Positions 1-63,700 of a stretch of DNA of 64,000 bases are shown here, piece by piece; position 1 is the stretch's first letter, and each line of letters opens with the position of its first letter. Under the pieces are notes generated by a model, which saw only the letters and a program-made list of their open reading frames with translations, was not told where the DNA came from and made no database searches. The position numbers and the translations under genes were made by a program. Location of the stretch: NCBI GenBank assembly GCA_000091205.1, contig AP006498.2. One strand, written 5' to 3'. The stretch comes from Cyanidioschyzon merolae. Lineage: Eukaryota.

Positions 1-345
1 TACGACTCAACACGGTTTCTAGTTGCCTCCCGTAACTTCTCCACCCACGCATTCTTGATATGTTTAAGAAGACAGGCTTTCACCACCGTCACGTAGGACT
101 CTTGTTTTTCGTGCAGCTTCTGACGTGGGCTCTCCCTCTTCTGCGTCTTTGTCTTTTCCTGTTACTCTCCGCCGGGCACTGTTTTTTGTTTTTTTTTCTG
201 GCAGCCGGCGACACCTGCCTTCCAGGATCCTCCGCTTGCTTTTCCAGAAATTTCCTTTTTTCGAAAAAGAACACGCTTTGAACGCTTCTGTTATAAACTG
301 CGAAAAATCAACCGAATACACTCATTTGAGCGTTGAAACACGACT
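1..345 (-). mobile_element. F-family (TnpB/Fanzor-like element) 5-prime portion, truncated by the window edge
   Basis: Reverse complement of 1-280 aligns base-for-base with the 5-prime 280 bp of the long F copy at 28311 onward (shared ATG...GTCGA(G/C)GATCCTGGAGG start and the aaacatatcaag block). Minus ORF 64-321 and plus ORF 60-281 mirror ORFs 28286-28513 and 28311-28574. Confidence 0.6.
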
Positions 346-409
346 GAGATGAAATAATATATTTCGCTACGATTCCAATGCAAATACACGTTTTACGTTA
401 AAACAACAA

Positions 410-1100
410 GTCAACGAATGGTCAGGATTGCGTTTCCCTTCAACGGCGAGATGCGCGTCGTACCTCATGCCTGCCGGTAATGGAGGTGTGCATCTCGACC
501 GCACTATATGCAGCAAAGAACAGGACTAGCTACTGACTAGCAATGAGATGACCATTTCTTTCCCACTCTACAGTAAACGTTAAAAGGGCAAATGTTGCCA
601 GATCGTCGAAAGCTTACCTTCCAGGCGAAAGGTCCAGCGAGCCGGACGAGTCTCCGGGGGTTCGTGCTTCATGGCTTCCCCTTCGCCACCCCAGTGCCAG
701 GTGCTCTAGTGATATCTGACCAACTCATCCCCGAAGCGGTTTATTCCGGCATTAAGGGTGCTCAGGCAGCGTCTGGGCGTCGCCCTGGTCGCAGCGCATT
801 CGGTGGTACGCCTACGCTGTCCTGTCCCTGTGCAGCATCCGCTCCAGCGGTACAAGCGCTGCGGCGGGTGCTCACCGCAGGCTCGGCGCACGAAAGAACG
901 CACAAATCGACCAGTCTAGCGGAAAGGGAGTCTAAGTAATGGAACCTGGAAGCAGGGTGCACCATGACGGGCGCTTTCCCGAAAGCCGATATCCATCCCG
1001 CAATCCGTGATCCACGGTCGATGGATAGGTTTTCTCAGACCAGAAAAAGAACAAGACACGACGCACATCTCGCCGTTGAAGGGAAACGCGATCCTGATCA
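410..1100 (+). mobile_element. B-family non-autonomous element (MITE-like) with about 40-bp terminal inverted repeats
   Basis: 412-452 (ggtcaggattgcgtttcccttcaacggcgagatgcgcgtcgta) is the inverted complement of 1058-1100. Internal sequence is shared with 27390-28140 (inverted) and 63010-63700. Confidence 0.65.
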
Positions 1101-1735: not shown

Positions 1736-3220
1736 ACATGGTCGTGGGACGTTTTTGTTCCACTGACAGGTGCGTTCGAGTTACATAGAACTGAACAGAT
1801 CCACGGACAAAGACGTATGCACTAATATTTCGGCTTCTTTAAACGACGCTGGTCTCTCCTTTCTCTCCGGCGCTGTTCATAGCAGTCGCACGATATTGGC
1901 GGTGGTGGTGTTCAGGCCCCGATTCCATAGCTGCCGACTCTTGTCTAGGCATTCCATGCACTGCCAAAAGTTGCCATCTTCGCTTCGCTTGCCATGTGCA
2001 CCTTCTCTCCACTCTGTTGCGGTGCGCCCGTCGCAGCGTTGCCGCTTGGCTGTGGTCTGGCGGTCACATGCCACCAGCATACTTCGTCATCTGACGGCTA
2101 GTCGCTGACACGTGAACGCTCGCGTCGACGCTCCGTAACTGTGTGTGGCGGGTCCAGAAGCCTCACCTCAGTGCCCTGCTCCGTTCTCGCACCAGCTGCC
2201 GTAACCTACGCTCACGGGCTTCTGCTGGGCGATCGCCTCGGCGAGAGCGCTCCCCGCAGCACACGCCTGCGCATGCTGCTCCCTTCTCTAGACGACTCGT
2301 CGAAGGCGATGCTCTCCAGACAGGAACAGGTACCGCAACGAACCTCCCAGGCCGGCGTGCACGTCGTGAACTCTCGATCTGTCTTCGCTCGCTTCGCGCA
2401 AAGCAGTGACGCACACTCTACTCAAAGTCATCGCAGCGATGAGTAAAGCCCGGGTCCAAGACCCCTTTCCATGCGCAGAGAAGAGACGGGCGCCTCTGAG
2501 CGCATGTTCCGGGAACTGCACCATACTGCCAATGAGTGCCGCTCCGTCGATAGCCCCACATAGAGGTGCCATTGCCTCTCAAGCGAAACTGCCTGTTCGC
2601 AGTGATAAGCTGCGTGACGTTTCAGCGAGAGTCTGTGAACGAGTCGTCACGGCCTCAACCCAGGTATTTTTCGTCGTTCATCCAGCGACGTGAAGTGCTG
2701 CACCCGAGTGTCGTCTTGAAGCAGAGGCATCGAACCTTGGCGCATGCGAGTGATTCGTGCACGCTACACTTAGGAATATGAGAAGCGCAGAGGCTTGTAC
2801 ACATGTCGTGGAAGAAGATGCCTTTTATGTGATGAATCCTTGCTCGTGGGTGCCGCGCATCATTCAAATGACGGTGACGTGACGAATGCGAGCGGCAGAG
2901 GGTCTACAAAGCAACTCCGGATGTGCGACCCTGATTCCTACAGCTACTTCCCAGTCCATGAGCCCGCACTGTTGCACTTTGCATCTACAGGCTGGAGATC
3001 TAAAACAATTGCGGAAAAATCTCAAGCCAGGAACTGCGCGAGCAGCTCTGTATTGCATTGATTCTAACACTGGCGCTGCATCAGGTGCCGCCGCTGTTTC
3101 TCTGCAAAGCTCTGCCGTGCGCTCTCTCTCGCTTTCTCTCTCTACAACCTCCTCTCCGCGCCCTTGGCCAAAACACGTGAACAGAGTGCTGGATGTCGAG
3201 CATAACGCCCCGTTGCGCAG

Positions 3221-3724
3221 CTATCCGCCAGTCTGCACCTGCTTCGAGTACTCTCTCACTAAATAGACCAGGACCGCTATGCATACAGGAACAAACAGTC
3301 GTTTCAAAAGCGTCCACGTGCTGGATCCACCAGAGAGCGGCTCAGCTCCGAACGCGCCCCCGGCAAAGAGTCGCTCTTTTCCCAGACCGTTGGCTCGAAC
3401 ACCATCGCCGTCACGCCTCTCGGCTGCTGCACTCGCTTGGACGGCTCGCTTTGCAGCGAGTTCCTCTGCAGTGGGCTCTCGTACGTCACCAATGTAAAAC
3501 TCTTTGAGCTGCTCCCGCGCAGACTTGGAGTGACCGACATCCTCGAACTCGCGCGTCGCGTCCCGACCTGCGGTCTCGAGGAGCACGTCTTCGCCTCCGG
3601 GGTGCTCGTTCAGAAACTTCTCAACGGCGTATACTTTACCATCGATGACTAGCCAGCATGAGTCCTTATCTGCGTGTTTAGCGACCTCGTCCAAAGTAAA
3701 CTGAGTCGTGCGACCCATCGCCAT
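3221..3724 (-). CDS. cytochrome b5, tail-anchored
   Basis: Minus ORF 3221-3823. The haem-binding motif HPGGEDVLLETAGRDATREFEDVGHS and a C-terminal hydrophobic anchor (LFVPVCIAVLVYLV) are present. The likely start is the internal Met of MAMGRTTQFTLDEVAKH at 3724. Confidence 0.75.
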   Translation of the reverse strand: MAMGRTTQFTLDEVAKHADKDSCWLVIDGKVYAVEKFLNEHPGGEDVLLETAGRDATREFEDVGHSKSAREQLKEFYIGDVREPTAEELAAKRAVQASAAAERRDGDGVRANGLGKERLFAGGAFGAEPLSGGSSTWTLLKRLFVPVCIAVLVYLVREYSKQVQTGG

Positions 3725-3849
3725 CACCAACGCCGTTCGAAAGTCGAACGACGCCAACGGTGTACAATAGTGGCGAGTGACCCGCCCTAGAGGAGACGTC
3801 GCCAGTTGATGTGCGGACGCCATCCAATCTTTCTCGACCGGCCACGTAC

Positions 3850-4385
3850 AACTGCTTCCAACTTTTTCTCATATAATTCCACGTTGGGAGGTTCTCCCAC
3901 AAAATTCTCTCTTGTCTACTTTGGAGGTCTATTCTCCAGCACCGCACATCTCCTTATATCGATAGCTGCGTTAAGGTCTCGGTTCACAAACTCGATACGT
4001 TTCTTGCCATCATTGGTTGTACTTACTAATGCAAGTAGCCGTCGAACTTTTGCCCTCCTTTCCATTTGCTCGTCTGTCAGCGGTCCGTACTTTTTTATAT
4101 CCTCAGGGCTCCACTGACACTTTTACATTTCCACTCTCTGAGGTGTGCATCCGAGTTCATGGTGTGTACACGATGTTCGGAACTCATCTACAGGTATCGT
4201 GACGAAACGCCTTGCGCACTCCTTTTACGTTCTTGTCGATGGAGCTGGTGTAGTCCCTTTTTGGGTCTTCCATCGGCCTGCTCCGTACGCTACTACGAGC
4301 CTCTGACTTTCATCCTCCTTCAGGGCACTCAGCTGATTGAAGAAGTTTGCGAACGCCCGCTGCCTCCCACCGTATAGATGCATAC
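3850..4385 (-). mobile_element. F-family 3-prime-region fragment, left arm of an inverted pair
   Basis: Plus ORFs 3806-4117 and 4017-4202 match the minus-strand reading of 30145-30564 (GLFSxTAHxxIxIxALxSRxxNSIRFLP, HGVYTMFGTHL). Confidence 0.5.
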
Positions 4386-4489
4386 GCTGACGAGCCCACC
4401 GGGGCTTTGTATACCCTTTCTACAGCTCCTCGTTATGAGCAGCGCGAGTATTCATGAACTCCAGAAAAGCCTGAAAGTCCGCTCAACGG

Positions 4490-4910
4490 CTCGTCACGTT
4501 ACCGATAGATGAGTAACGAACGACTTTCGTCCACCATGAGTTGGGACGTACACTTCAGAAGGTAGAGATGGAAAAAGCCAGCGGGGCGCTCCGGAGATGA
4601 AAGAGTACGGAGAGCTGCCAGAGCAGGAAATTGCAGTGAGGGCACGAGGCCGTGGACTCCTTGCATTCATAAGTTCCACCAGCGGCGGAGCATGCAAGGA
4701 GTTCGTGAACCGAGACTTTAACGCAGCTATTAATATCAGAAGATGTGCAGTGCCGGAGACGAGACCCGAAGAGCTGACGCGATCTAATTTTGTGACACAG
4801 CCTCTCAGGCTCCAAGTGTACAGAGAGAAGCTGAAACCGATAGCCGAGGGCAGGTCGAAAAAGACTGGGAGATGTCTGCGCGATAGTAGATACACACAAA
4901 TACCGCCCAT
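4490..4910 (+). mobile_element. F-family 3-prime fragment retaining the RuvC-III motif
   Basis: ORF 4597-4938 reads GLLAFISSTSGGACKEFVNRDFNAAINIRRCAVPETRPEELTRSNFVTQPLRLQVYREKLKPIAEGRSKKTGRC, with D-x-NAA-x-NI. Confidence 0.6.
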
Positions 4911-5372
4911 GGCCGCGAAACGTTCTTCATTTTGCTGAATGTATAGATCATCTTCCGCCGGATGCACCAGCGATGTCCCCGGCACAAACGCTCCAACAGA
5001 AGATGTATTTCTTTTGGCAAGCCGTCGCACGGAAGACTTGCTCGGATACCGATGTTGGACGTCTGGGTCTGCATAATATTCTCAAACGAATGCTGATCCA
5101 GATTCTACCGTGGCATCTCTCGCAACGCATGAACTTCGCGCGAACCCGTTTCATCGTGTGCGTACGGCTTCCGCAAACCCCCTACATTTCAAAATCCGCT
5201 CACTCGGTGGTTGCCAACGCGGGGGTGAGGCCAACCTCATGTCGCCCTCTTTGAAACGCGCCTCCGGGGCGGAGCGTTCGCCACTCGGGTGATCCCAAAG
5301 ATGGATACCCCCGCAGCGATGCATATCGGTGGAGCGCATCCCAAGGAAGCGCGCCCCTATGATTTTCCGTCA

Positions 5373-10949: not shown

Positions 10950-11159
10950 GGCGAAATGCGGTCAAGAAGCCTGGAGACAATTCCGGGTGCGGGCTCTCCG
11001 CGAGCACAAGCCGACGTTCTGGCTCTCTGAATGGACAGGGTCCAGTACGGGATGGTGCCGGCTTCACTAGATGCCGATAACCATGATGCATTCGAGGAGC
11101 TCTGCTTCTAGTCTTCCAGGTAAATTATGCTGGATTCTGCAGGTTCGTATCATCAAAAG

Positions 11160-11676
11160 CTTTTTTACGGTTTATAGTGAATGCATTCGAAGTGCGTTCA
11201 TTCGAAGTGTAAAAAATCCATAGGAAATATATGGACATGGAGGTCGAGGATCCTGGTGGACCCCCATCGCCGTGCTCGACAAAGGAAACAAAAAAAGTCC
11301 TCTTCTCGCTGGCCATGGATCGAAGAAGAGCGCATGACGGAGAAGAACAGGGGGAATAGGCGAGAAAAGGTGTTTGCCGGACGGTACGTTTACAAAACTC
11401 TAGTGGTACAGGGGGCACGAGTTCCAGCTATCCTTGCGTTGATGAGTTCCACCATCGGCGGCAATAGAAGTATGGAGCTCGTGAACCGCGACTTCAAAGC
11501 TGCCATCAATATCAGACGATACGCGTTGCTAAAGACGAGACCCGCGGATCTGACGCGATCCAACTTTGCGGGACAGCCTCGCAGGGCCTAACTTTACAAG
11601 CAGACGCTAACGTCGATAGCATGAGGCCCGTCTAAAAAGGCCGGGTGGCGTCCGCAGGTGGATATTCGTTTACCGA
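11160..11676 (+). mobile_element. F-family internally deleted short copy
   Basis: Conserved 5-prime leader (gcattcgaagtgcgttcattc) and ATGGAGGTCGAGGATCCTGGTGGACCC start. ORF 11181-11591 ends ...ELVNRDFKAAINIRRYALLKTRPADLTRSNFAGQPRRA. The conserved 3-prime terminus ggtggatattcgtttacc is present. Confidence 0.6.
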
Positions 11677-21480: not shown

Positions 21481-21985
21481 CGCCTAACGGCATAAACAAG
21501 TATGTTCTTTTGAAGAAACATGAAATTCAAGGGAAAGTTACGGACATGGATGTCGAGAATCCTGGAGGCCCGATGTCTCCGGATCCGAAAGAAAATATTC
21601 GCCTCCCCGACCATGGAGCGAAGAAGAGCAATTCATGACGACGACGACGATGATGACGACGATGCGATATAGGCGAGAAAAGTTGTTTGCTCGACGGTAC
21701 GTTTGCGAAACTGTAGTGGCACCGAGAGCACGAGTTCGAGGCATCTTCGCAAAGCTAAGTTCCACTATTTGCAGTAAATGAAAGGATTTCGTTTACCGAG
21801 ACCTCAACGCCGCGATCATTATCAGACAAATGTGCAGTGCGAAAGACGATACCCGAGGAACTGACGCGATCTAACTTCGCAGGGCACTCTCTCAGGCTCA
21901 AAGTGTGTCTAGATAAACTGAAACCGATAGCACGTGGCTGGTCAAAAAAGGCTGCGAGGCTTCTCAGGGTGGATATTCATTTACT
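21480..21985 (+). mobile_element. F-family short copy fused downstream of the D relic
   Basis: ATGGATGTCGAGAATCCTGGAGGCCC start and a (GAC/GAT)n tract. ORF 21837-22175 reads EELTRSNFAGHSLRLKVCLDKLKPIARGWSKKAARLLR, and the terminus is ggtggatattcatttac. Confidence 0.6.
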
Positions 21986-26737: not shown

Positions 26738-27389
26738 CGTATCGCTTACGTTCTATATCATAACATGATCCGCTATGAGGACGTGCCAGGGCTGTGCTTG
26801 GTGCATACACGCTCGTTGTGCGCTTAGCGCTCGTTTCGCCTTGGCCCGTCGCTGACGAGCAGCGGTGTCGCAGCAGCGTCCAGCGTGCGCTGCTTGTGCC
26901 GCGTTTAAAGAGTCCTGCGGCACTACAGGGCCGTAGCGGCCGGCTCACACGAGCGCTGGCAGGGCACTGTCTCAAGCGTTTCCAGCGGGTGTACTGCAGG
27001 TACGGGAGGTACGACTCTGGACAGGTACCTGGCGCTGTTCAACGGTACTCCTCTCGCTAACTGAGCTTGAACTGTGGACAACTTGGAAACCGTCTCGTGT
27101 AGTTGTCCTGAACAGACGCAGGCAAGTGGCAACTGCCTCCCTTTGCGCTGCAACTAGGCTTGGTGGCTTTCCCGGTGACGCTGAAGCGACCTTGCAGACG
27201 TCTCGACTACGTACGGGCAGTTATGTGTTTGCAAGCAACGTGCTAGAGCGTGTTCAGTTGCGAGCAAGCGTCTATATAGAAGATGTAAACGTCCGTTTTT
27301 ATTCAAAACTAGCGTCAATCTAGGTACACAACGATTTCTTTGACGCACCAACCAGTGCTTCGCCCTATACGCGGGCTAGATGAAAATGG

Positions 27390-28140
27390 TACACTGATTT
27401 TTTCGATGACAAAACGTTTACATTGACCTTGCATCCCGGATTGCAGGATAGATAATGGTAATCAAAGAAGTGTCCAACATGATGCACCTTACCTCCAAGT
27501 TCCATGACTTATTCTCGGATGTATTGGTCGTTTCGTATGTTCTATCGTGCGCCAGGTACCTGCTTTGAGCACCCGCCTTGGTACCTAAACTGCTGTTACG
27601 GATGCTGCACGTAAACAGAGCGGCTTTGCCATACCACTGAGCGCTTCGGCTGGAGGAATGCTTCACCTAACATGGAGTCGGGATCCATTATAATCCTGGG
27701 TGCCGGTAAGCTGTGCAGACAGACGTACTGTCTGCGGCAGCGCGAAGCGATGTACAAGGAGTCCACTGCGACCGGGGCGATCCCCAGACGCAGCGTACCC
27801 GCTCCTAGTCTTGGAATAAACTGCGTTTTGGACGAGCTGCTCAGGTCCATTCACAGCACTGGGCGCTGGAAAGAGCATGAATGACTGGTCTAGCAGACAC
27901 GTCCGGCTCGCGAGACCCTCCTCCTATAGGGTAAACTTTCGACAGTGTGGAAAGCGTGTCCGCCTTTTAACGTTTATCGTAGATGGGGAAAGTAATCATT
28001 TTATTGTCGCTACTTAGTGGCTTCTTTCTGTTCTTCGTTCTGAATAGAGCGCTCGATGCGCGAACCTCCATACCTGGCAGGAACTGAACATGTCGCGTAT
28101 CTCGCAGATGGAGGGAAACGCGATCCTGACCGCTCCTTGC
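27390..28140 (-). mobile_element. B-family copy, inverted relative to the copy at 410-1100
   Basis: The TIR at 28100-28140 (ggagggaaacgcgatcctgacc) is the inverse of the 412-435 TIR. 27850-28000 matches 550-830 and 63050-63290. Minus ORF 27418-27666 (GAQSRYLAHDRTYETTNTSENKSWNLEVRCIMLD) matches plus ORF 63301-63618. Confidence 0.6.
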
Positions 28141-28239
28141 CCTATTTCTCTAAAGGGCGAGTTGTATTCTCGTTAACTTCATAGCCAAGTATAGTTTTCA
28201 ATTCGATTGCTTTTCAACCCTCAAGTAAAAATATTCGAT

Positions 28240-30656
28240 TGACTTTTCGCAGTATATAACAGAAGCGTTCAAAGAGCGTTCTTTTTCAAAAAAAATAAAA
28301 ATGAAAAGTTATGAGAAAGCAAGTCGACGATCCTGGAGGCCCAGTGTCGCTGGGTGCCAGACAAAAAAACGAAAAACTGTGCCTAGTCCAGAGGAACAGG
28401 AAAAGGCAAAGAAGCAAGGGCAGGAAGACCGACGTCAGTGGCTGCAAGAAAGACGACAGTACGACGAGACGGTGGGGAAAGCCTGTTTTCTTAAACATAT
28501 CAAGGATCCGCATAGAGAAAAATCGCGAGAGGTCATTAGGAACCGTGTCGATTCGTACTCCAGGAGGAGTATAAAGTCGTCCTCAGGACTAATGCATCTG
28601 GTGAAGGGGATGTACGAAGACGTGATGGACATGGAAACAGTCGAGGTTCCGGAAGAATTCTTCGACAAGACCTATATTCGTCACCTGATGCTTGGTAGAG
28701 CGGAAGCGCAGAGGGAAAAAGAGCGGATACACGTCCTCACGAAAACCATCCTTTTTACAGCTTCGAGGGTGCTCGAAACAAGGGTGACCGGGATATTCAC
28801 GACAATGGGGCGATGAAGTAGATCACGAACCTGAAGAACCATTTGACAGTGAACCTCGAACGTTTCATGAAACGCACCGTGTTTGCACTCTACTCGGGCC
28901 TATCTCGCAATGGAAAATGGGCGATTATCAATGGCATCACGAAAGATCGCAAGCGTGAAGATGAAGTCGAATTCGTCGACAAGAAGGCATCAAACGAGAG
29001 CACGAATGAAGCTTCTGTAATCCGTGCGGCTATAGAAGAGCATCGTGCAGTCCTGGAGCTGGCGAATCCAACAGACAAGATATCAGAGTTGAAAGAAGCT
29101 AAGGAAAGATACTATCGCCTCGTCCTGCGCTATTTCGTGTTTCTGGACCAAGAACTCGAACGCAAGGCAGAGGTGAAGCAGCGTGAGGAAAGCAATGAAG
29201 AGTGGGAGAGACGGAAGGCTTTCCTACTGGGGAAGCGCCTCAACGTGGTTCCAATGTGCAACATCAAGTCACATTTTGTGACTATCCACTCCAGAATCCT
29301 TCACGGCATCATGGAGGAGATTAGTCCGGAGTTCGATGTTAGCAGGGAGGAATTCTCCGGTGAAAACCGGGAGACGTACTGGAAGAATATCTTCGATTTC
29401 AAACATCTCAAAGTGAGCAAGCAAAAGGTATTCAATGGGATGATCGAAACCGATGGGGTAGCCTTGTGTGTACACTATCGGCGGTTGAAAAGAGATCGTC
29501 CAGTTCCACCCTCGGCTTCGCCCGTGACGAAGGATGAAGAAAAGAAGGAGGCGGATCCTGCGACGCAGGAGGTATAGGATAAAGACCTTGTCGTTGACGT
29601 GACGAAGGATGAAGAAAGGGAGGAGGCGGATCCTGCGACACAGGAGGTGGAGGATAACGACCTTGTCGTTGACGCGGTGAAGCATGAAGATGAGAAGGAG
29701 GCGGATCCTGTGATGCAGGAGGTAGATGGGAACGACTTTGTCGTTCGTGCTGACCCCGGAAACACAAATATCGTAATCATCGCAGTATCCAAGCGTGCGG
29801 AAGACGGTACCGACGGTAATTTTCGTCAGAGACATGCGTCTTTTGAGGTTCTCGAAAATGATATATTATCGAGAATCCGGCACAATGAATGCAAGGAAGA
29901 AAATTGAGACATGGAATGCAGGAATGAAGGATCACCTGGAAACTTTGAGCGAGGTGACTAGCCGAGAGGCGGACTTTCAAACTTTTCTGAAATTCATGGA
30001 AGTTCGCGTTGCTCATTGGGATGCGCTGTGGAATGAGTATGCAAAGCCCCGGTGGGCTCGTCTGCGTATGAATTTGTATTTTGGGAAGCAGCGTGCATTC
30101 GCGAACTTTTTCAATGAGCTGAGCACCTTCAAAGAAGATGAAAGTCAGAGGCTCGTAGTGGCGTACGGAGCAGGGCGCTGCGCGCCCAAAAAAGTATATA
30201 CACCAGCTCCAACGACAAGAACGTACAAGGAGAGCGCAAAGCGTTTCTTTACGATACCAATAAGATGAGTTCCGAACATCGTATACACACCATGAACTGG
30301 GGTGTACATTTCAAAGGGTCGAGATGGAAAAGTGCCAGCGGAGCCCTGAGAATATAAAAAAGTACGGAGCGCTGACAGATGAGCAAATGGAAAGGAGAGC
30401 GGAAGTTCGGGACTACTTGCATTCGTAAGTACAATCAATGGCAAGAAACGTATGGAATTTTTGATCCGGGACTTTAACGCCACAATCAATATAACAACAT
30501 GTGCGGTGATGGAGAATAGACCACCAGAGCGAACACGAGAGAACTTTGTTGGACAACCTTTCAAAATGAAACTATATGAGAAAAAGTTGAAACCAGTAGT
30601 AGGTGGCCGGTCGAGAAAGACTCGATGGTGTTTGAACGTCAGTTGGAGACTTCTTG
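28240..30656 (+). pseudogene. F-family long copy: disrupted TnpB/Fanzor-like RuvC-nuclease gene (about 790 codons over five frame-shifted ORF pieces)
   Basis: ORF pieces are 28301-28816, 28843-29577, 29599-29907, 29795-30268 and 30452-30661. [17 protein letters not shown] is a RuvC-I-like GxDPG block. LVVAYGAGRCAPKK...PAPTTRTYKE is a post-RuvC-II-like region. The C-terminus GLLAFVSTINGKKRMEFLIRDFNATINITTCAV carries D-x-NA(A/T)-x-NI, the RuvC-III signature. There are in-frame stops at 29578 and about 30400. Confidence 0.6.
29524..29748 (+). repeat. 75-bp tandem repeat x3 inside the F long copy
   Basis: Units at 29524-29598, 29599-29673 and 29674-29748 encode ...[22 protein letters not shown] / [25 protein letters not shown] / [29 protein letters not shown]. 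The last unit ends in the RuvC-I-like block. Confidence 0.7.
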
Positions 30657-30838
30657 ACTAGGGCGGGTTTCTCGCCACTACTGTACACCGCTGGCGTCGT
30701 TCGACTTTCGAACGGCGTTTTGCGATGGTTTGATCGTTGCAACGCTCCAGGAGCAAACAAGGCTTGGAAACGTGCACGCTTTTCATGGAAAGAGCGCAGC
30801 GCTGCTTGCAGAGAGAGCCTTTGATGCGGTAGAGGTGC

Positions 30839-33016
30839 TTGGTGCTCGTCGCTGAGAGTCCGCGAAGCAACTGCACCAAAACTGGCGACGGCAAGGTTTT
30901 ATCTATGTGCATGGTAGTCGCGAAAGGCGTAATAGCACGTTTCAGCGGTAGCGTGCACAACCTGGGCCGCTGGAGAAGCTGGCTTGTCTCGCGGACAGCT
31001 CTGTTTCGTCCGTTTTCACTTCGAGGCGAACGGGCGCTGCTAGCAGATCCCCGATGCCAAAACGACAACGTTGCAGCTCCTCTTCTACCTGTTCAACTGA
31101 GCAGCTCTCATCCAAGGGGCTTGCTTTCGGCAAACTTGGTGTATCGGACAGCGCGATTTATTTGCACGAAACAGTGTTTGCCAGCGACGGCAGCAGAACC
31201 GCCTGTACAGCAGCAGCACCAGCAGCAGCAAGACGGCAACGTTACCGATTCTGCGTGTCATAGGAAGTGCCTCAGTTTTCTGCAGGCCTGGAGCATTCCC
31301 GAGTTCCCGGTAGTGTCCGGGACGCAGCTCGGGGCCTTCCATGGATGGCCGTTGCTCCTGAGAGCCCTCACACATGCGTCTGCTCTGCCGCCACGTCTGT
31401 GTCCCCGCGAGTCCGGTGTGCTCACTGATGCACAGCGCTGGGAGCGCTACCAGCTCCATAATGCTGCCTTAGAGTTTGTCGGGGACCGCGTCCTCAACCT
31501 TTGTGTCGTGGACTGGCTCGTAAGGACACAGCCGTGGAAAACTCAAGGTGCAGACACTGCGCTGTATCGAGGCTCGAATATCAAAGAACGGTTGACGTTC
31601 TATGTACAGCAATATGTGTATAATGCGCATCTGACGGATGTTGCATATCGAATAGGACTTGATCGTATCGTCCGTCGAAGACTCCCTGCTGAAAAGGAGC
31701 ACCCCGGACGCGGCACCGAGCTGGTGCTCGCCAACGCTTTCGAAGCCCTTGTTTGCGCGATATTTCTGGAACACGGTTTTCTCCAAGCACAGAAATTTGT
31801 ACGCCAAACATTATTTGAGGGGCCGGGTTCCTCGCTGAAACAGCCCATGGGAGACTCGTGGCATGCAGACACACGATTTGCTGCGACGGACACAGCTCGG
31901 GTACGACAGGAGGCTGCTGCTCTGGACAGGATGCGGCAGCCAGTTCTGCGACCCCCGCATAATATACCGCTTTCTTCTCATCCCAAGGAGGCTTTGGAAA
32001 AAGAGCTGTTGCTCTGGGGTCTGTGTATCGGAGGTAATCGCTCTGCCGGAGGTGAAGACCTTCGAACTAGAGCGCAGCAGCAAAAGAGGTCGGGAGTATG
32101 TCTCTCCTACTGTCTAGAACATGAGGAAAGGCGACTGAGCCATCATTCCCTATATATGGTGCGTCTAGAGCTGTCAGGAGTGGTGGTCGCTCGCGGACGA
32201 GGTCGCTCGATTCGCAGTGCAGAGAACGCAGCAGCGGCCGCTTTCCTGAAGGCACTCGGTCTGGACTGTGCATCGTTTCGAACGCCATATGCCTCTGGGG
32301 AAGCGTTATCCAGCCGAGAGATTTGGAAACAGTTCCGCGACCTCAACGTGCCGCTTTGCATCCCGGACAACTATAAGCCCGCGTCTCCTTTCGACGAGGA
32401 TGCCGACTGGGCGACAATCTTGCTCTGGAATCGAGAACGCTTCGGGAGCGTCTCGCGACAAGAACAGAAAACACGCGCCAAGGCCGAAGAACGAGAGGAA
32501 CGCTCTCCTGGTGATGCTGTTTTTTGGCATCAAGCTCTGGGATTCGATGATTGGGCAAACGCCCGGCAAGTGCTGCCGTCTCTGTTGGCGCTGGTGCTTC
32601 CGAACGAGGGCCCCGAACCCGAGGCTGCCCGAACGGCGCTCGCTGCTGCGGAGCTGGTGGAACTCAAGTATTTGGGACACTGCGGTTTGAAGCTTTTCGC
32701 AGCAAGCTCCAGTCTTCGGATCTATGGTCCGGGTGCATGGTCGACGGGAGCCCTTCACGATGACTACGTGCGAGCGATTGCGTCAACAGCGGTAACGGGG
32801 CAGGCTGCGGAGCTGCTGAGACGTCTGCAGCGCGCCGGGGCCTGGCGGACGAGGCAGCGCCTCTCAGCAGCTGCGCAACGCGAACTGTTGCTAGCGTTCT
32901 TAGGAATTGCACAGGTGCTGTTTGGTTACGAAAAAGGGCCGGATTTACTTCTTAGAACTCTGGATGAGGAGAAACGCGCGTCTACACCTGTCTCTTTCGA
33001 CAGACCCCATCTTTAG
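30839..33016 (+). CDS. RNase III domain protein with C-terminal dsRBD-like segment and polyQ tract
   Basis: HNAALEFVGDRVLNLCVVDWL matches the RNase III signature (E-x-LEFLGD), and ELVLANAFEALVCAIFLEHG matches the second conserved block. SGVVVARGRGRSIRSAENAAAAAFLKALG is dsRBD-like. (CAG)n at 31200-31232 encodes QQQHQQQQ. Confidence 0.7.
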   Translation: MVLVAESPRSNCTKTGDGKVLSMCMVVAKGVIARFSGSVHNLGRWRSWLVSRTALFRPFSLRGERALLADPRCQNDNVAAPLLPVQLSSSHPRGLLSANLVYRTARFICTKQCLPATAAEPPVQQQHQQQQDGNVTDSACHRKCLSFLQAWSIPEFPVVSGTQLGAFHGWPLLLRALTHASALPPRLCPRESGVLTDAQRWERYQLHNAALEFVGDRVLNLCVVDWLVRTQPWKTQGADTALYRGSNIKERLTFYVQQYVYNAHLTDVAYRIGLDRIVRRRLPAEKEHPGRGTELVLANAFEALVCAIFLEHGFLQAQKFVRQTLFEGPGSSLKQPMGDSWHADTRFAATDTARVRQEAAALDRMRQPVLRPPHNIPLSSHPKEALEKELLLWGLCIGGNRSAGGEDLRTRAQQQKRSGVCLSYCLEHEERRLSHHSLYMVRLELSGVVVARGRGRSIRSAENAAAAAFLKALGLDCASFRTPYASGEALSSREIWKQFRDLNVPLCIPDNYKPASPFDEDADWATILLWNRERFGSVSRQEQKTRAKAEEREERSPGDAVFWHQALGFDDWANARQVLPSLLALVLPNEGPEPEAARTALAAAELVELKYLGHCGLKLFAASSSLRIYGPGAWSTGALHDDYVRAIASTAVTGQAAELLRRLQRAGAWRTRQRLSAAAQRELLLAFLGIAQVLFGYEKGPDLLLRTLDEEKRASTPVSFDRPHL

Positions 33017-61499: not shown

Positions 61500-62520
61500 C
61501 GCTTGGCATAGCTGCACTTCCTGTCGTTCAACGCAATGCTGTTCCGTACCCGCTGCGTATCATTGAATGCTTATTCGATGTTTATAGCAAGAGATCGAGA
61601 TCGTTATGCAATGCACCCTACATACCGCAGACGGGTTGCCTGTATGGTACACTCTGTACTGAGGAGTGTACCGGGAACTGCATGCCTCCTTCAGGTCAGT
61701 CATACCGCATTACTTTGATGGCAGAGGAACGCTGAAAGAAATAACTAGATCTGCTCCGCGCCGAAAACTGGTATTGCCAAAGTATGTTTGCGGTCAATGG
61801 TACAAAAACAACCCGTTGATCTCTTGAGGGAAAGCAAAAGCTGTGATAGGAGCTGCTAGGACTGTCTCTGTTACTCAGTAGCTTGTTCGCTTGATCCTGA
61901 AAACACTGGGACACAGTCGCAAGAAAAGGCAATCTAATTCAGCACCATCTTGCACGGAAATCGCAACGAAAGCGTTCCTAGAACGTTGCGATCGGTATGA
62001 AGCTGAGCAACGCCCGTGTATTTCAGTCGATGTGGCTTGCTTCGGATGAAACGGTCGGAGCGTACATAAGTATTTGCTGGGCGGGAGCCCGGCGTATGTA
62101 CGATCCAACACGAAGAGAATGACGACATTATCATCTGTTCTAGGTACAGTGTATGCATATGGCGGCCTCAGTTTCGCTTATAAAGAAGGCTCATACATCA
62201 GGACCCTTTTCGTCGAATTATTCAAGATTTTCCTCCTCACGTCTGGCGGCGTCATTTTGTTGGACAACGTGGCGTTTCACCATTCCCCTTGCGTTCGAGC
62301 TTTTGCAGATGCGGTTGGGGTAGAACTGCTTTTCACTCCTTCGTACGCTCCTTGGTTAATCCCAGTCCAGGAGTGTTTTCTATCATGAAACGTAATGAGC
62401 GCTCCACTGGGCGTACTGATGAAGCGTTCAGCACACGGTGACACCAGGGCACATTTCGTCTTTCCTCCGCAAGTCCCTGTCTCTCCGGGAGGGTTTTCCC
62501 CTAAGGGCATAAAAAGGTGC
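61500..62520 (+). pseudogene. D-family copy 2: Tc1/mariner-superfamily transposase C-terminal remnant
   Basis: ORF 62074-62388 reads ...GGVILLDNVAFHHSPCVRAFADAVGVELLFTPSYAPWLIPVQECF. DNxxxH is followed 36 residues later by the E of PxxE, the Tc1/mariner DD(34-37)E third catalytic block (compare fqqDNapcHts...lpPYSPDLNPIE). Upstream frames are degraded. Confidence 0.55.
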
Positions 62521-62996
62521 GTTTATTTGAAGGAATAAAAAAATCCGAGGGAAAATTAAGGACATGAAAGTCGGGGATCCTGGCGAGCCGTCATCGCCAG
62601 CTGCCGGAAAACAACGAAAAACTCCTCCGCCCGCCCACCATCGAGCGAAGAAGGACAAGTGACAAAGAAGAAAACAGAAGTTTAGCTAGAAATGGTGTTT
62701 CCTCCAACAGAACAATGAATAGGCTGTTGTAGCATATACAGCATGAGTTCTGGGAGTCCTTCCAAAGGTGAATTCTATCAGAGGCAATAAACGCATGGAG
62801 TACGTGAAGCGAGACTTTACGCTGCTACCAACATCATACGCTATGTGGTGCTGTATACGAGACTACAGGAGCTTAGGCGATATGAGTTTGTAAGGCAGCC
62901 TCTCAGGGACTTGGTGCAAAGAGAAAAACTGAAGCCAATGGCAGGAGGGCGGCCAAAAAGGCTGCGAGGCGTCTTCGGGTGGGTGTCAATTTGCCA
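62520..62996 (+). mobile_element. F-family short copy fused downstream of D copy 2
   Basis: GGACATGAAAGTCGGGGATCCTGGCGAGCC start. A 3-prime part encoding ...RDFTLLPTSYAMWCC...LRDLVQREKLKPMAGGRPKRLRG (degenerate) and the terminus gggtgggtgtcaatttgcc. Minus ORF 62428-62658 mirrors the other copies (DDGSPGSPT). Confidence 0.55.
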
Positions 62997-62999
62997 AGG

Positions 63000-63700
63000 A
63001 TAGCAAGAACAGAAACTAAACACTTACTAGCTGCCCGATAACGATTTCTTCCCGCCTCTACAGTAAGCGTTGAAAGGGAGGGAAGGGTTCCGTATATTCG
63101 AAAGTTTACCTTCTAGGCGGAAGATCCCCCGACCCGGACGAGTCTGCCGGGCTTACGCTCCGTTTGAATCTGCAGTGACGAAAGCTGTGATGAAGTTTGA
63201 GCAGCTCGTCCGAAATGCAAGTTATCCTGGGACTCGGAGCTGATATGCTGCCTCTGGATGTCGCCCTGGTCGCAGTGGACTCCTAGTATATCGCTTCGCG
63301 TTGCCGCAGGCAGTATGTCTGTCTGTACAGTTTCCAGGCTCCCAGAATGATAATGAATCCCAACCTGTGTCGGATGAACCACGCCTCGGTCCGACGCCTC
63401 AGCAGTATGGCAAAGCCGCTCTATCTCCGTTCTGCATCGGCATCAGCGGTATGGGCGCTTTCGCTGGAGCCCAGAGCAGGTACTCGGCACGCGACAGAAT
63501 GTATGAAGCGACCAGTGTGTCCAAGAAGAAGTATCGGTTATGGAACTTGGAGTTAAGGTGCCGCGTGATGGACGCTTTCCCGAAAGCCAAGACCCATCCG
63601 GCAATCTGGAATCCATAGTCTATGTAAATATTCTGTCAAAGAAAAAAGATCGACGCGATCGCTGCCTCTGTTGGATGCTGCCGCCCTCGATGTTTCCCAT
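63000..63700 (+). mobile_element. B-family copy, 5-prime-truncated, abutting the F copy
   Basis: 63050-63290 aligns with 550-830, and 63540-63690 aligns with 940-1080. ORF 63301-63618 matches the minus ORF 27418-27666. The right TIR is degenerate. Confidence 0.5.

Follow-up and report, generated by a model that had tools for sequence, protein, structure and literature searches.

The plus-strand segment at 27404-30719 of the window (the whole 64-kb stretch of DNA that was analyzed) is almost certainly one of the ~150 old copies of CMe-1A in Cyanidioschyzon merolae 10D, full-length yet decayed; the gene that it carries is a disrupted gene for a TnpB-like RuvC nuclease of the eukaryotic, RNA-guided Fanzor1 type, an assignment based on the agreement of profile and predicted fold with Fanzor1 structures that have been solved. 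C. merolae is a red alga, as an earlier sequence-only reading of the window had supposed of the host; its genome measures 16.5 Mb. Four ORFs of the window are identical to the C. merolae 10D proteins BAM81788, 81789, 81792 and 81797, which are encoded on a chromosome of 908,485 bp.

CMe-1A is a non-autonomous DNA transposon of ~3.2 kb without terminal inverted repeats (TIRs), and its presence at this locus is not new to the literature, the element having been published for C. merolae in 2013. The paper that introduced Fanzors (Bao & Jurka 2013, Mobile DNA 4:12, PMC3627910) gives a consensus of 3,169 bp, ~150 copies with ~80% identity to the ~3 kb consensus, an absence of TIRs, a 5' stretch of 635 bp corresponding to TE-N2_CMe, and a Fanzor1 protein of 734 aa, CMe-1. 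The sequence-only reading was right in its identification and wrong in its claim of novelty: it had held that such elements might be undescribed in the species, for which CMe-1A is listed in that paper.

Organization of the CMe-1A copy

The published consensus aligns with the window in two blocks, consensus 1-2193 with 27404-29599 (84.0% identity) and consensus 2117-3169 with 29673-30717 (86.5%), and blastn of the window against this consensus yields E = 0. At the 5' side, the flanks of CMe-1A copies diverge upstream of ~27393-27398, and the edge of the window copy may lie a few bases upstream of 27404, at ~27393. At the 3' side, a comparison of ~59 copies reveals a sharp end of homology at 30719, a boundary common to 42 independent insertions; the flank beyond it is rich in G and T and poor in A, and may be part of a target motif. 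No inverted repeat within 27380-30740 pairs the two termini of the copy, and no transposase ORF is found inside it. The identity of the window copy to the consensus accords with the ~80% reported for the family. The copy resembles the published consensus in its 5' TE-N2_CMe module, its single-exon Fanzor1 gene and its missing TIRs, and differs from it in the five frameshifts and two stops that make it a pseudogene, in a 3' boundary positioned 2 nt past the published end and in a few extra conserved bases suggested 5' of the published start.

CMe-1A is composed of three parts: a ~635-bp 5' module, the single-exon Fanzor1 gene and a short 3' tail with a hairpin, all of which lie on the plus strand in the window copy. 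The 5' module (27404-28035, consensus 1-635) is equivalent to the stand-alone TE-N2_CMe; this ~640-bp unit also occurs solo in loci L025, L035 and L058, and directly 5' of the Fanzor core in L041, L043, L073, L020, L017 and L048, in agreement with what Bao & Jurka 2013 described. The CMe-1 pseudogene (28311-30661) extends from the ancestral ATG at 28311 to a stop codon at 30659-30661 and comprises about 787 codons once its frames are corrected; the published 734-aa protein matches it at residues 1-731, in three frames (tblastn). Just upstream of RuvC-I, a tandem repeat (29523-29745; period 75, 3.0 copies, 85% matches in TRF) encodes an acidic 25-aa repeat. The number of 75-bp units varies, with one in the consensus, three in the window copy and four in an uninterrupted relative (L004), and the region is disordered in the AlphaFold model described below (residues 381-470). 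The tail ends in the terminal hairpin GGCGTCGTTCGA-CTT-TCGAACGGCGTT (30693-30719), the 3' arm of which stops at the element boundary.

A basic KKRK stretch is present near the N-terminus, reading TKKRKTVPSP in the window copy and GKKRKTVPSP in the consensus. An N-terminal nuclear localization signal is a Fanzor1 trait (Jiang et al. 2023).

Decay of the gene

The five consecutive ORF pieces in which the sequence-only reading had recognized the gene are all present on the plus strand between 28301 and 30661 (28301-28816, 28843-29577, 29599-29907, 29795-30268 and 30452-30661). Its estimate of the damage, two frameshifts and two stops, was accurate for the stops, which are in-frame TAG codons at 28819-28821 and 29575-29577, and too low for the frameshifts: five frameshifting indels separate the copy from the published consensus (+2 at 28361, -1 at 28738, -2 at 29830, +1 at 30262 and -1 at 30410), and four are counted when the copy is compared with an uninterrupted relative. 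Substitutions are distributed nearly evenly over the three codon positions (13.7/8.9/15.7%; 17.8% in non-coding sequence). With five frameshifts, two stops and this near-even pattern, the window copy is a pseudogene in neutral decay, from which no nuclease can be made.

Conversely, the gene might be functional, its apparent frameshifts and stops being assembly errors, introns or sites of programmed recoding; the codons for the catalytic Asp, Glu and Asp are all still there, and some CMe-1A copies keep intact ORFs (Bao & Jurka 2013, PMC3627910). We regard this as highly improbable. The lesions number seven and are independent (two TAG stops and five indels whose lengths are not divisible by three), the copy has diverged ~15% from the consensus with the near-even substitutions described above, conserved residues have been altered (e.g., NRDFNAAINIRR to IRDFNATINITT), the consensus CMe-1 gene is single-exon, and similar damage is seen in almost all of 71 related loci. 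A functional gene at 28311-30661 is already contradicted.

Related loci in the window and beyond

The sequence-only reading had counted at least seven related loci and described the family as numerous, with all copies in the window broken. At the protein level, at least eight related loci are found in the window, plus one solo 5' module; similarity of this degree (tblastn E down to 0) far exceeds what chance would give, and none of those in the window is intact. The 5' part of a second CMe-1A copy (1-1037, minus strand; protein level 1-653; consensus 4-240 and 366-1150) runs off the edge of the window. The 3' third of another copy (3731-4497, minus strand; protein level 4509-3790; consensus 2400-3169, 85.7%) has a single in-frame stop and contains the best-preserved RuvC-II/III segment in the window; it is arranged head to head with an older 3' fragment (4491-4882, plus strand; protein level 4256-4881; consensus 2692-3087, 74%). 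Short internally deleted derivatives, all on the plus strand, are located at 1051-1721 (protein level 1458-1721; consensus ~683-938 joined to ~2820-3080), 11153-11659 (protein level 11415-11660; consensus 832-937 and 2849-3088), 21498-21964 (protein level 21701-21971; consensus 869-962 and 2895-3082) and 62514-62974 (protein level 62722-62982; consensus 868-970 and 2889-3082). The solo module is a TE-N2_CMe copy at 63005-63638 (minus strand; consensus 4-635, 81%).

Outside the window, at least one uninterrupted ORF survives, in L004, a metagenome contig from a related population, whose host we take to be a cyanidiophyte and whose sample we assume to come from a hot spring. The Fanzor1 clade to which CMe-1 belongs is large, with 2,104 representatives at 50% identity (E <= 0.001).

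Profile and fold evidence

A family profile built from 36 diverse sequences matches only Fanzor1 structures in the PDB, namely PpFz1 (9cf0, 3.7e-18), SpuFz1 (8gkh, 6.3e-14) and GtFz1 (9cer, 1.4e-8), in an alignment that spans DPG, DEFRTS and NRD. Single sequences behave differently: Pfam returned nothing above threshold for the five raw ORF pieces, the 787-aa reconstruction and six homologues, the sole hint being a weak Cas12f1-like_TNB match in the RD-NAA-NI tail, and searches of the PDB by phmmer with the reconstruction, or with a narrower profile from 27 sequences, gave only chance matches. PF26935, considered as a precomputed domain, was rejected, as it is only DUF8286 and weakly matched. 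The lack of a significant profile hit, which the sequence-only reading had named as evidence that would count against it, was thus observed for the single sequence and overturned by the family profile.

Independent support comes from structure prediction, a check that had likewise been proposed on the basis of the raw sequence. An AlphaFold model was made for the closest uninterrupted relative and reached a pLDDT of 79 and a pTM of 0.77; a model from the shallow 27-sequence alignment had a pLDDT of 36 and was discarded. In a Foldseek search, Fanzor1 proteins take the first seven places (E = 2e-17 to 2e-14, TMt 0.49-0.71, probability 1.00), whereas Cas12 and TnpB score no better than 7e-3. These matches assign the model to the Fanzor1 fold, the bilobed arrangement of WED, REC, RuvC and TNB. 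In the model, D484 resides in strand 478-485, E656 follows strand 650-654 and D725 starts helix 724-737, in agreement with the arrangement that Xu et al. 2024 described for RuvC.

The failure of the single sequences to match Pfam or the PDB, and of the narrow 27-sequence profile to match the PDB, might be taken to mean that the DxNAAxNI-like motif is a chance occurrence or part of some unrelated protein family, and that the locus is no relative of TnpB and Fanzor at all. To this reading, which is refuted by the matches of the diverse profile and by the independent fold matches, we assign a practically negligible probability; moreover, CMe-1 is included in the Fanzor1 alignment and phylogeny of Bao & Jurka 2013 (PMC3627910). 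The assignment to the TnpB/Fanzor-like RuvC nucleases, as first made from the motifs, and specifically to Fanzor1, is accordingly retained.

Catalytic motifs

Both motifs on which the sequence-only reading relied, a GxDPG-type block in the position of RuvC-I and the C-terminal FLIRDFNATINITTCAV, were found on the plus strand of the window copy. The RuvC-I block of 17 residues (29737-29787) contains the Fanzor "DPG" motif, with the catalytic Asp codon at 29752-29754, and reads RADPGN at 29746-29763. At the canonical RuvC-II position, LVVAYGAGRC (30152-30181) has Gly instead of Glu. The shifted RuvC-II glutamate is found in DEFRTS (30264-30281; Glu codon 30267-30269), which is read in the third frame owing to the flanking frameshifts at 30262 and 30410 and sits in a sixth segment, between the fourth and fifth of the five ORF pieces. 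The RuvC-III block FLIRDFNATINITTCAV (30458-30508; catalytic Asp codon 30470-30472) includes IRDFNATINI at 30464-30493, with the catalytic Asp in an RD dipeptide as is typical of RuvC-III in Fanzor1. The ORFs at 4597-4938 (CKEFVNRDFNAAINIRRCAV) and 11181-11591 (VNRDFKAAINIRRYA), in which the C-terminal motif had been noted for other copies, exist as well.

Among the 36 diverse family members, D484, G486, G623, E656, R724, N727, A729 and N731 are invariant, and P485 and D725 are at least 90% conserved. The acidic RuvC-I and RuvC-II residues, on the presence and spacing of which the sequence-only reading had made its identification depend, are in place: AYGAG (G623) is followed 33 residues further on by DEFRTS (E656), and the 174 residues between D484 and T659 in P0001 satisfy the Fanzor1 spacing motif D-X(125,275)-[TS]-[TS] (Bao & Jurka 2013, PMC3627910). 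A DPG motif with the catalytic Asp in RuvC-I is a Fanzor1 trait (Yoon et al. 2023), Gly or Pro occupies the canonical RuvC-II position in Fanzors (Jiang et al. 2023), and in Fanzor1 a C-terminal shift brings the conserved Glu to the immediate N-terminal side of the TNB/zinc-finger segment (Jiang et al. 2023; Yoon et al. 2023). In the family profile, the RuvC-I block aligns with DPGR/DPNK of PpFz1 and SpuFz1, DEFRTS of CMe-1 aligns with DEFRTS of PpFz1 and DEYKTS of SpuFz1, and the RuvC-III Asp falls opposite residue 1000 of the MBP-SpuFz1 chain. The latter is taken to be native D606 (the offset of 394 being inferred from the chain length), an experimentally tested catalytic residue of SpuFz1 (Xu et al. 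2024).

The zinc ribbon, which the sequence-only reading had placed in a Cys-containing segment, did not hold up. In the window copy, this segment contains only two Cys and two His and is therefore not a C4 ribbon; that of CMe-1 has H-H-x3-C plus one further Cys only. A canonical C4 zinc ribbon is absent from CMe-1, and CxxC occurs in the segment in only 3 of 119 clade members. The Fanzor1 motif of Bao & Jurka 2013 (PMC3627910) includes a C4 zinc finger between [TS][TS] and RD, whereas later Fanzor1 definitions do not require one, and a zinc finger is present in "many" Fanzors (Yoon et al. 2023).

Comparison with characterized systems

The solved Fanzor1 structures are those of SpuFz1 (8gkh, 9ceu-9cez), PpFz1 (9cf0-9cf3) and GtFz1 (9cer-9cet). 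CMe-1 matches their fold over its full length (TMt up to 0.71) and shares with them the carriage by a transposon, the DPG Asp, the Gly at the canonical RuvC-II position, the Glu in D-E-[FY]-x-T-S and the RD Asp, which aligns with D606 of SpuFz1. Sequence identity is only 12-15%, however, and CMe-1 has THHELGC...KC...GLLALVSTT in place of the CxxC...CxxxxC ribbon of SpuFz1 and PpFz1, as well as the expandable acidic 25-aa repeat before RuvC-I.

The TnpB proteins of IS200/IS605 elements (e.g., ISDra2, 8h1j) have the same RuvC core as CMe-1. In both IS200/IS605 and CMe-1A, the nuclease gene is located on the 3' side, TIRs are missing and the right end bears a hairpin, and in both the guide RNA is expected to overlap the ORF end. 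An identity as TnpB of this type was nevertheless rejected: the fold of 8h1j is matched only weakly (E = 0.03 over 272 columns), the glutamate is at a different position with Gly at the canonical one, CMe-1 (734 aa) has about twice the length of TnpB (~400 aa) with a large helical N-terminal half, and there is no transposase ORF, whereas IS200/IS605-type TnpB has an associated TnpA, a partner not known from C. merolae.

Fanzor1 proteins are also encoded by the Helitron2 elements of Chlamydomonas reinhardtii (CRe-1 to CRe-3/CrFNuc-1). Like CMe-1A, these are algal elements of high copy number that are devoid of TIRs and have a terminal or non-coding 3' region that is conserved. They are expressed and belong by classification to the Helitrons, whereas CMe-1A is unclassified, and their proteins keep a CxxC...CxxC ribbon, unlike CMe-1.

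The 3' end and a possible guide RNA

The hairpin at 30693-30719 is a candidate for the end of an omega-RNA scaffold or for a transposition signal; by analogy, an omega-RNA would be expected at the hairpin-ended 3' terminus of CMe-1A. To judge from SpuFz1, GtFz1 and PpFz1, intact members of the family would bind an omega-RNA that originates by transcription of the element's 3' end. If they operate like the characterized Fanzor1 proteins, the guide would be the flank just past the 30719 boundary, and the complex would cut matching dsDNA beside a TAM with its single RuvC site; such cleavage may aid the persistence of the transposon and would not itself catalyze transposition.

Folding analysis of the 3' end gave little structure. 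RNAalifold predicted no pairs from 40 copies of the 3' end, pairing in the projected structure was 87.9% versus 87.6% in shuffled controls, and covariation was not significant, its score being reached by 22 of 500 shuffles. Folding z-scores were weak, with -0.8 for the consensus and -2.0 for the last 124 nt of the window copy.

The gene could be dead and the 3' end of the copy, with its terminal hairpin and the stems upstream of it, still be transcribed into an omega-RNA, to be used in trans by an intact CMe-1 encoded elsewhere with the flank after 30719 as guide, a scenario that is compatible with a decayed copy and adds to it. The copy has a complete 3' terminus that closes with a 12-bp hairpin, within the 124 nt with the z-score of -2.0; among the remnants in the window, 3'-terminal fragments and short derivatives in which the 3' region is kept are the most frequent; extra stand-alone guide-RNA copies exist in Chlamydomonas (Jiang et al. 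2023); and one uninterrupted ORF is available in a related population (L004). We nonetheless hold this use in trans to be decidedly unlikely, given that neither significant covariation nor a consensus structure was found, that the consensus 3' end folds no better than shuffled sequence, and that a long ORF is kept in only 1 of ~71 related loci, so that strain 10D may have lost any protein partner. The decay of the copy itself is unaffected.

The absence of TIRs, the hairpin at the terminus and the surplus of 3' fragments suggested mobilization by a Replitron or another HUH-type enzyme; this was dropped, as red algae have no such proteins according to the Replitron paper. A Helitron-like or IS200/605-like mechanism may be considered as a candidate.

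Implications

The locus demonstrates that a Fanzor can be recognized from raw sequence by its DPG and RDxNAAxNI motifs where single-sequence searches of Pfam and the PDB fail. For the specialist, the points of interest are a clade without a zinc ribbon and a sharp, hairpin-ended 3' boundary in a family for which no omega-RNA has been described. CMe-1 may represent a large Fanzor1 clade that lacks the C4 ribbon and keeps the Asp-Glu-Asp triad, an intact copy of which is possibly active with a compact omega-RNA and stand-alone guides; taken as a whole, we consider this proposal rather unlikely. If it were true, the compact omega-RNA would extend from within the ORF end as far as the terminal hairpin, and the ~500-bp short derivatives in the window would be stand-alone guide modules. 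An active copy of the L004 type would then provide an RNA-guided nuclease that is eukaryotic and lacks a zinc ribbon, in an alga of hot, acidic habitats.

Identity and decay of the locus

When the published CMe-1A consensus and its protein, CMe-1 (supplementary files of Bao & Jurka 2013), were aligned to the window, positions 27404-29599 (+) matched consensus 1-2193 with 84.0% identity and positions 29673-30717 matched consensus 2117-3169 with 86.5% identity; apart from two additional units of a 75-bp tandem repeat, no large difference separates the two. This makes the locus a full-length copy of CMe-1A. According to Bao & Jurka 2013 (PMC3627910), the element has a consensus of 3,169 bp with both ends defined and without terminal inverted repeats (TIRs), its target-site duplication is undetermined, and it encodes a 734-aa protein in a single exon; the ~150 copies are each ~80% identical to the consensus, some are still intact, and a separate element, TE-N2_CMe (~70 copies), shares 95% identity with the 5' 635 bp. 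One Fanzor1 family is listed for C. merolae in this founding Fanzor paper, and the Fanzor hosts in Jiang et al. 2023 include Rhodophyta. The host had rightly been surmised to be a red alga: four ORFs of the window exactly match annotated C. merolae 10D proteins (BAM81788, BAM81789, BAM81792 and BAM81797), and long ORFs without introns are found in the window, among them a nuclear phycobilisome rod-linker gene. The accompanying supposition that the element might be new to this host was wrong, because CMe-1A, CMe-1 and the copy number were published for C. merolae in 2013; the locus is a dead copy of an already known Fanzor1-bearing transposon.

The Fanzor1 pseudogene spans 28311-30661 (+). All five ORF pieces of the sequence-only reading (28301-28816, 28843-29577, 29599-29907, 29795-30268 and 30452-30661, all +) exist with the peptides quoted from them, including a 17-residue RuvC-I block at 29737-29787 (+) and the C-terminal RuvC-III block FLIRDFNATINITTCAV at 30458-30508 (+), but a sixth coding segment at about 30264-30410 (+), in the third reading frame, had been missed; it carries the RuvC-II block DEFRTSYTHHELGC. 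The two stops counted in that reading stand (in-frame TAG at 28819-28821 and 29575-29577), whereas its two frameshifts are replaced by five frameshifting indels relative to the CMe-1A consensus (+2 at 28361, -1 at 28738, -2 at 29830, +1 at 30262 and -1 at 30410), four of which are independently seen in comparison with the related metagenome locus L004. The copy also has a 3-bp deletion at 30438 and a 150-bp repeat expansion in its coding region. Substitutions relative to the consensus amount to 13.7%, 8.9% and 15.7% at codon positions 1, 2 and 3 and to 17.8% in the non-coding parts, a pattern close to neutral decay and not one that purifying selection on a gene would leave. All three catalytic codons persist but are spread over different reading frames, and the copy is incapable of making the nuclease.

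Fanzor1 membership of the protein

Neither the ORF pieces, a 787-aa reconstruction nor the homologues match any Pfam family, and a single-sequence phmmer search of the PDB yielded no match. The homologue search gave 27 relatives, all from JGI metagenomes, which we take to be on cyanidiophyte contigs, since C. merolae proteins recur unchanged on contigs of similar samples; the uninterrupted relative from L004 (P0001) has 752 aa and a divergent one (P0026) 702 aa. A profile of the 27 sequences matched nothing in the PDB and retrieved 2,104 relatives at E <= 0.001 from 1.84 billion representatives. Across 36 diverse full-length members, aligned as A2 (residue numbers of P0001), D484 and G486 (DPG), G623 (AYGAG), E656 (DEF), R724, N727, A729 and N731 are invariant, and at least 90% of the members keep P485 and D725. 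The A2 profile matched Fanzor1 structures and no other PDB entries, in three sets, from Parasitella parasitica (9cf0, E = 3.7e-18), Spizellomyces punctatus (8gkh, E = 6.3e-14) and Guillardia theta (9cer, E = 1.4e-8). Profile searching, the check proposed with the sequence-only reading, returned nothing from Pfam or the PDB for a single sequence, an outcome which that reading had itself named as refuting a Fanzor, and Fanzor1 only for the diverse A2 profile. The alignments extend through DPG, D-E-[FY]-x-T-S and N-R-D and place the family's RD aspartate opposite residue 1000 of the MBP-SpuFz1 chain; after subtraction of 394, an offset inferred from chain length, this would be native D606, which Xu et al. 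2024 mutated.

An AlphaFold model built from A2 is confident (pLDDT 79, pTM 0.77), and in a Foldseek search of the PDB seven Fanzor1 chains rank first (E = 2e-17 to 2e-14, target-normalised TM up to 0.71), with Cas12 and TnpB next (E >= 7e-3). D484 lies within a strand, E656 just past strand 650-654 and D725 at a helix start, which is the RuvC triad layout described by Xu et al. 2024, and a Gly at the canonical RuvC-II position with the Glu 33 residues downstream corresponds to the 'rearranged' site of Jiang et al. 2023 and Yoon et al. 2023. With profile and fold both leading to Fanzor1 structures, the original identification of a Fanzor gene, hard to make from sequence alone, is correct.

In the Fanzor motif of Bao & Jurka (PMC3627910), [TS][TS] and RD flank a C4 zinc finger. 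The corresponding segment of CMe-1, TSYTHHELGC...KC...GLLALVSTT...NRD, has two His and two Cys, and CxxC is absent from it. Only 3 of 119 family members (proteins P0080-P0229) have a CxxC anywhere from the shifted glutamate to the RD aspartate, and the single Cys in RGLLWC is the only one common in that segment across the clade (119 examined). Since 116 of these relatives are without CxxC, the canonical TnpB/Fanzor zinc ribbon is missing across a large Fanzor1 lineage. Its absence does not disqualify CMe-1 from Fanzor1, because Yoon et al. 2023 ascribe the finger only to 'many' Fanzors and the motif's own authors placed CMe-1 there.

Directly before the DPG motif lies an acidic 25-aa (75-bp) repeat of variable copy number, with one unit in the CMe-1A consensus, three in the window copy (29523-29745; period 75, 3.0 copies by TRF), four in L004 (7146-7450) and, by eye, apparently more in the homologous protein P0007. 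This linker is the only disordered part of the AlphaFold model.

Related loci

Searches of the window with the locus (tblastn, blastn) revealed related segments at many places, at least eight loci being related at the protein level and none intact, in agreement with the earlier count of at least seven, all broken; the comparison ORFs at 4597-4938 (motif CKEFVNRDFNAAINIRRCAV) and 11181-11591 (motif VNRDFKAAINIRRYA) were also recovered. A CMe-1A 5' part at 1-1037 (-) continues past the window edge. Two 3' fragments of different ages, 3731-4497 (-; consensus 2400-3169, 85.7%) and 4491-4882 (+; consensus 2692-3087, 74%), stand inverted, head to head, with their junction within a few bases, and a solo TE-N2_CMe, as published, occupies 63005-63638 (-; consensus 4-635, 81%). 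Four ~500-bp elements (1051-1721, 11153-11659, 21498-21964 and 62514-62974, all +; 63-73% mutually identical) each join consensus about 830-960 (leader and first codons) to about 2850-3088 (the last ~240 nt of coding sequence), and share a short middle segment in which a degenerate HEFEAS replaces DEFRTS. They are an old, internally deleted, non-autonomous subfamily, keeping the presumed promoter and the region where the putative omega-RNA would lie.

The only long open frame in the 71 related metagenome loci is that of L004 (5800-8259; 819 codons between stops); it is without the consensus ATG and ends ~31 codons early, so this copy may not be fully functional either.

Element ends and the candidate omega-RNA

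Homology among ~59 aligned copies, from the window and the 71 metagenome loci, ends abruptly at window 30719. The element closes with a 27-nt hairpin, GGCGTCGTTCGA-CTT-TCGAACGGCGTT, and its boundary coincides with the end of the hairpin's 3' arm. This anatomy fits the arrangement in Fanzors and TnpBs that have been characterised, where the omega-RNA scaffold reaches to the transposon right end and the flank serves as guide (Jiang et al. 2023); in CMe-1A the RNA itself is a candidate. RNAalifold predicted no structure for 40 copies of the 3' end; in a projected structure, 87.9% of cells were paired vs 87.6% in shuffles, its covariation score was equalled or exceeded in 22 of 500 shuffles, and folding z-scores were -0.8 for the consensus and -2.0 for the window copy. 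Such tests have little power either way, because the copies are mostly neutrally decaying.

The first ~7 nt past the 3' boundary (window 30720-30727 and its equivalents in 41 other insertions, L004-L074) are non-random: A occurs in 1 of the 42 insertions at position 1 and in none at position 3, and a weak K-G-K-K-G-T-G pattern is seen (e.g. GATGGTG, GTTGGTG, GGTGGTG), which represents either a fuzzy G/T-rich element tail or a preference for such targets. An ORF with an RNase III domain and a weak dsRNA-binding motif (30839-33016, +) starts ~120 bp downstream of the element 3' end, probably by coincidence.

The core common to all copies starts at about 28045 (window numbering). Upstream of it, in the ~100-700 nt that precede the Fanzor start codon in L005-L075, at least four alternative modules occur, unrelated to one another and each internally conserved, so that CMe-1-type genes lie behind several different 5' ends; the window copy has the TE-N2_CMe unit. 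In L035 (about 1805-1851) and L022 (about 3644-3690), 45 bp separate a CMe-1A 3' end from a TE-N2-type 5' end that starts downstream of it, and this spacing suggests that elements inserted in tandem or nested fashion beside an existing right end. No inverted repeat pairs the two termini of the window copy. HUH-type mobilisation was considered because of the lack of TIRs, the hairpin end and the many 3' fragments; Replitron proteins are reported to be absent from red algae.

By analogy with characterised family members, intact CMe-1 would bind an omega-RNA derived from the element 3' end, and the complex would cut double-stranded DNA that matches a flank-derived guide, next to a TAM, at a single RuvC site; such cutting may help the element to persist.
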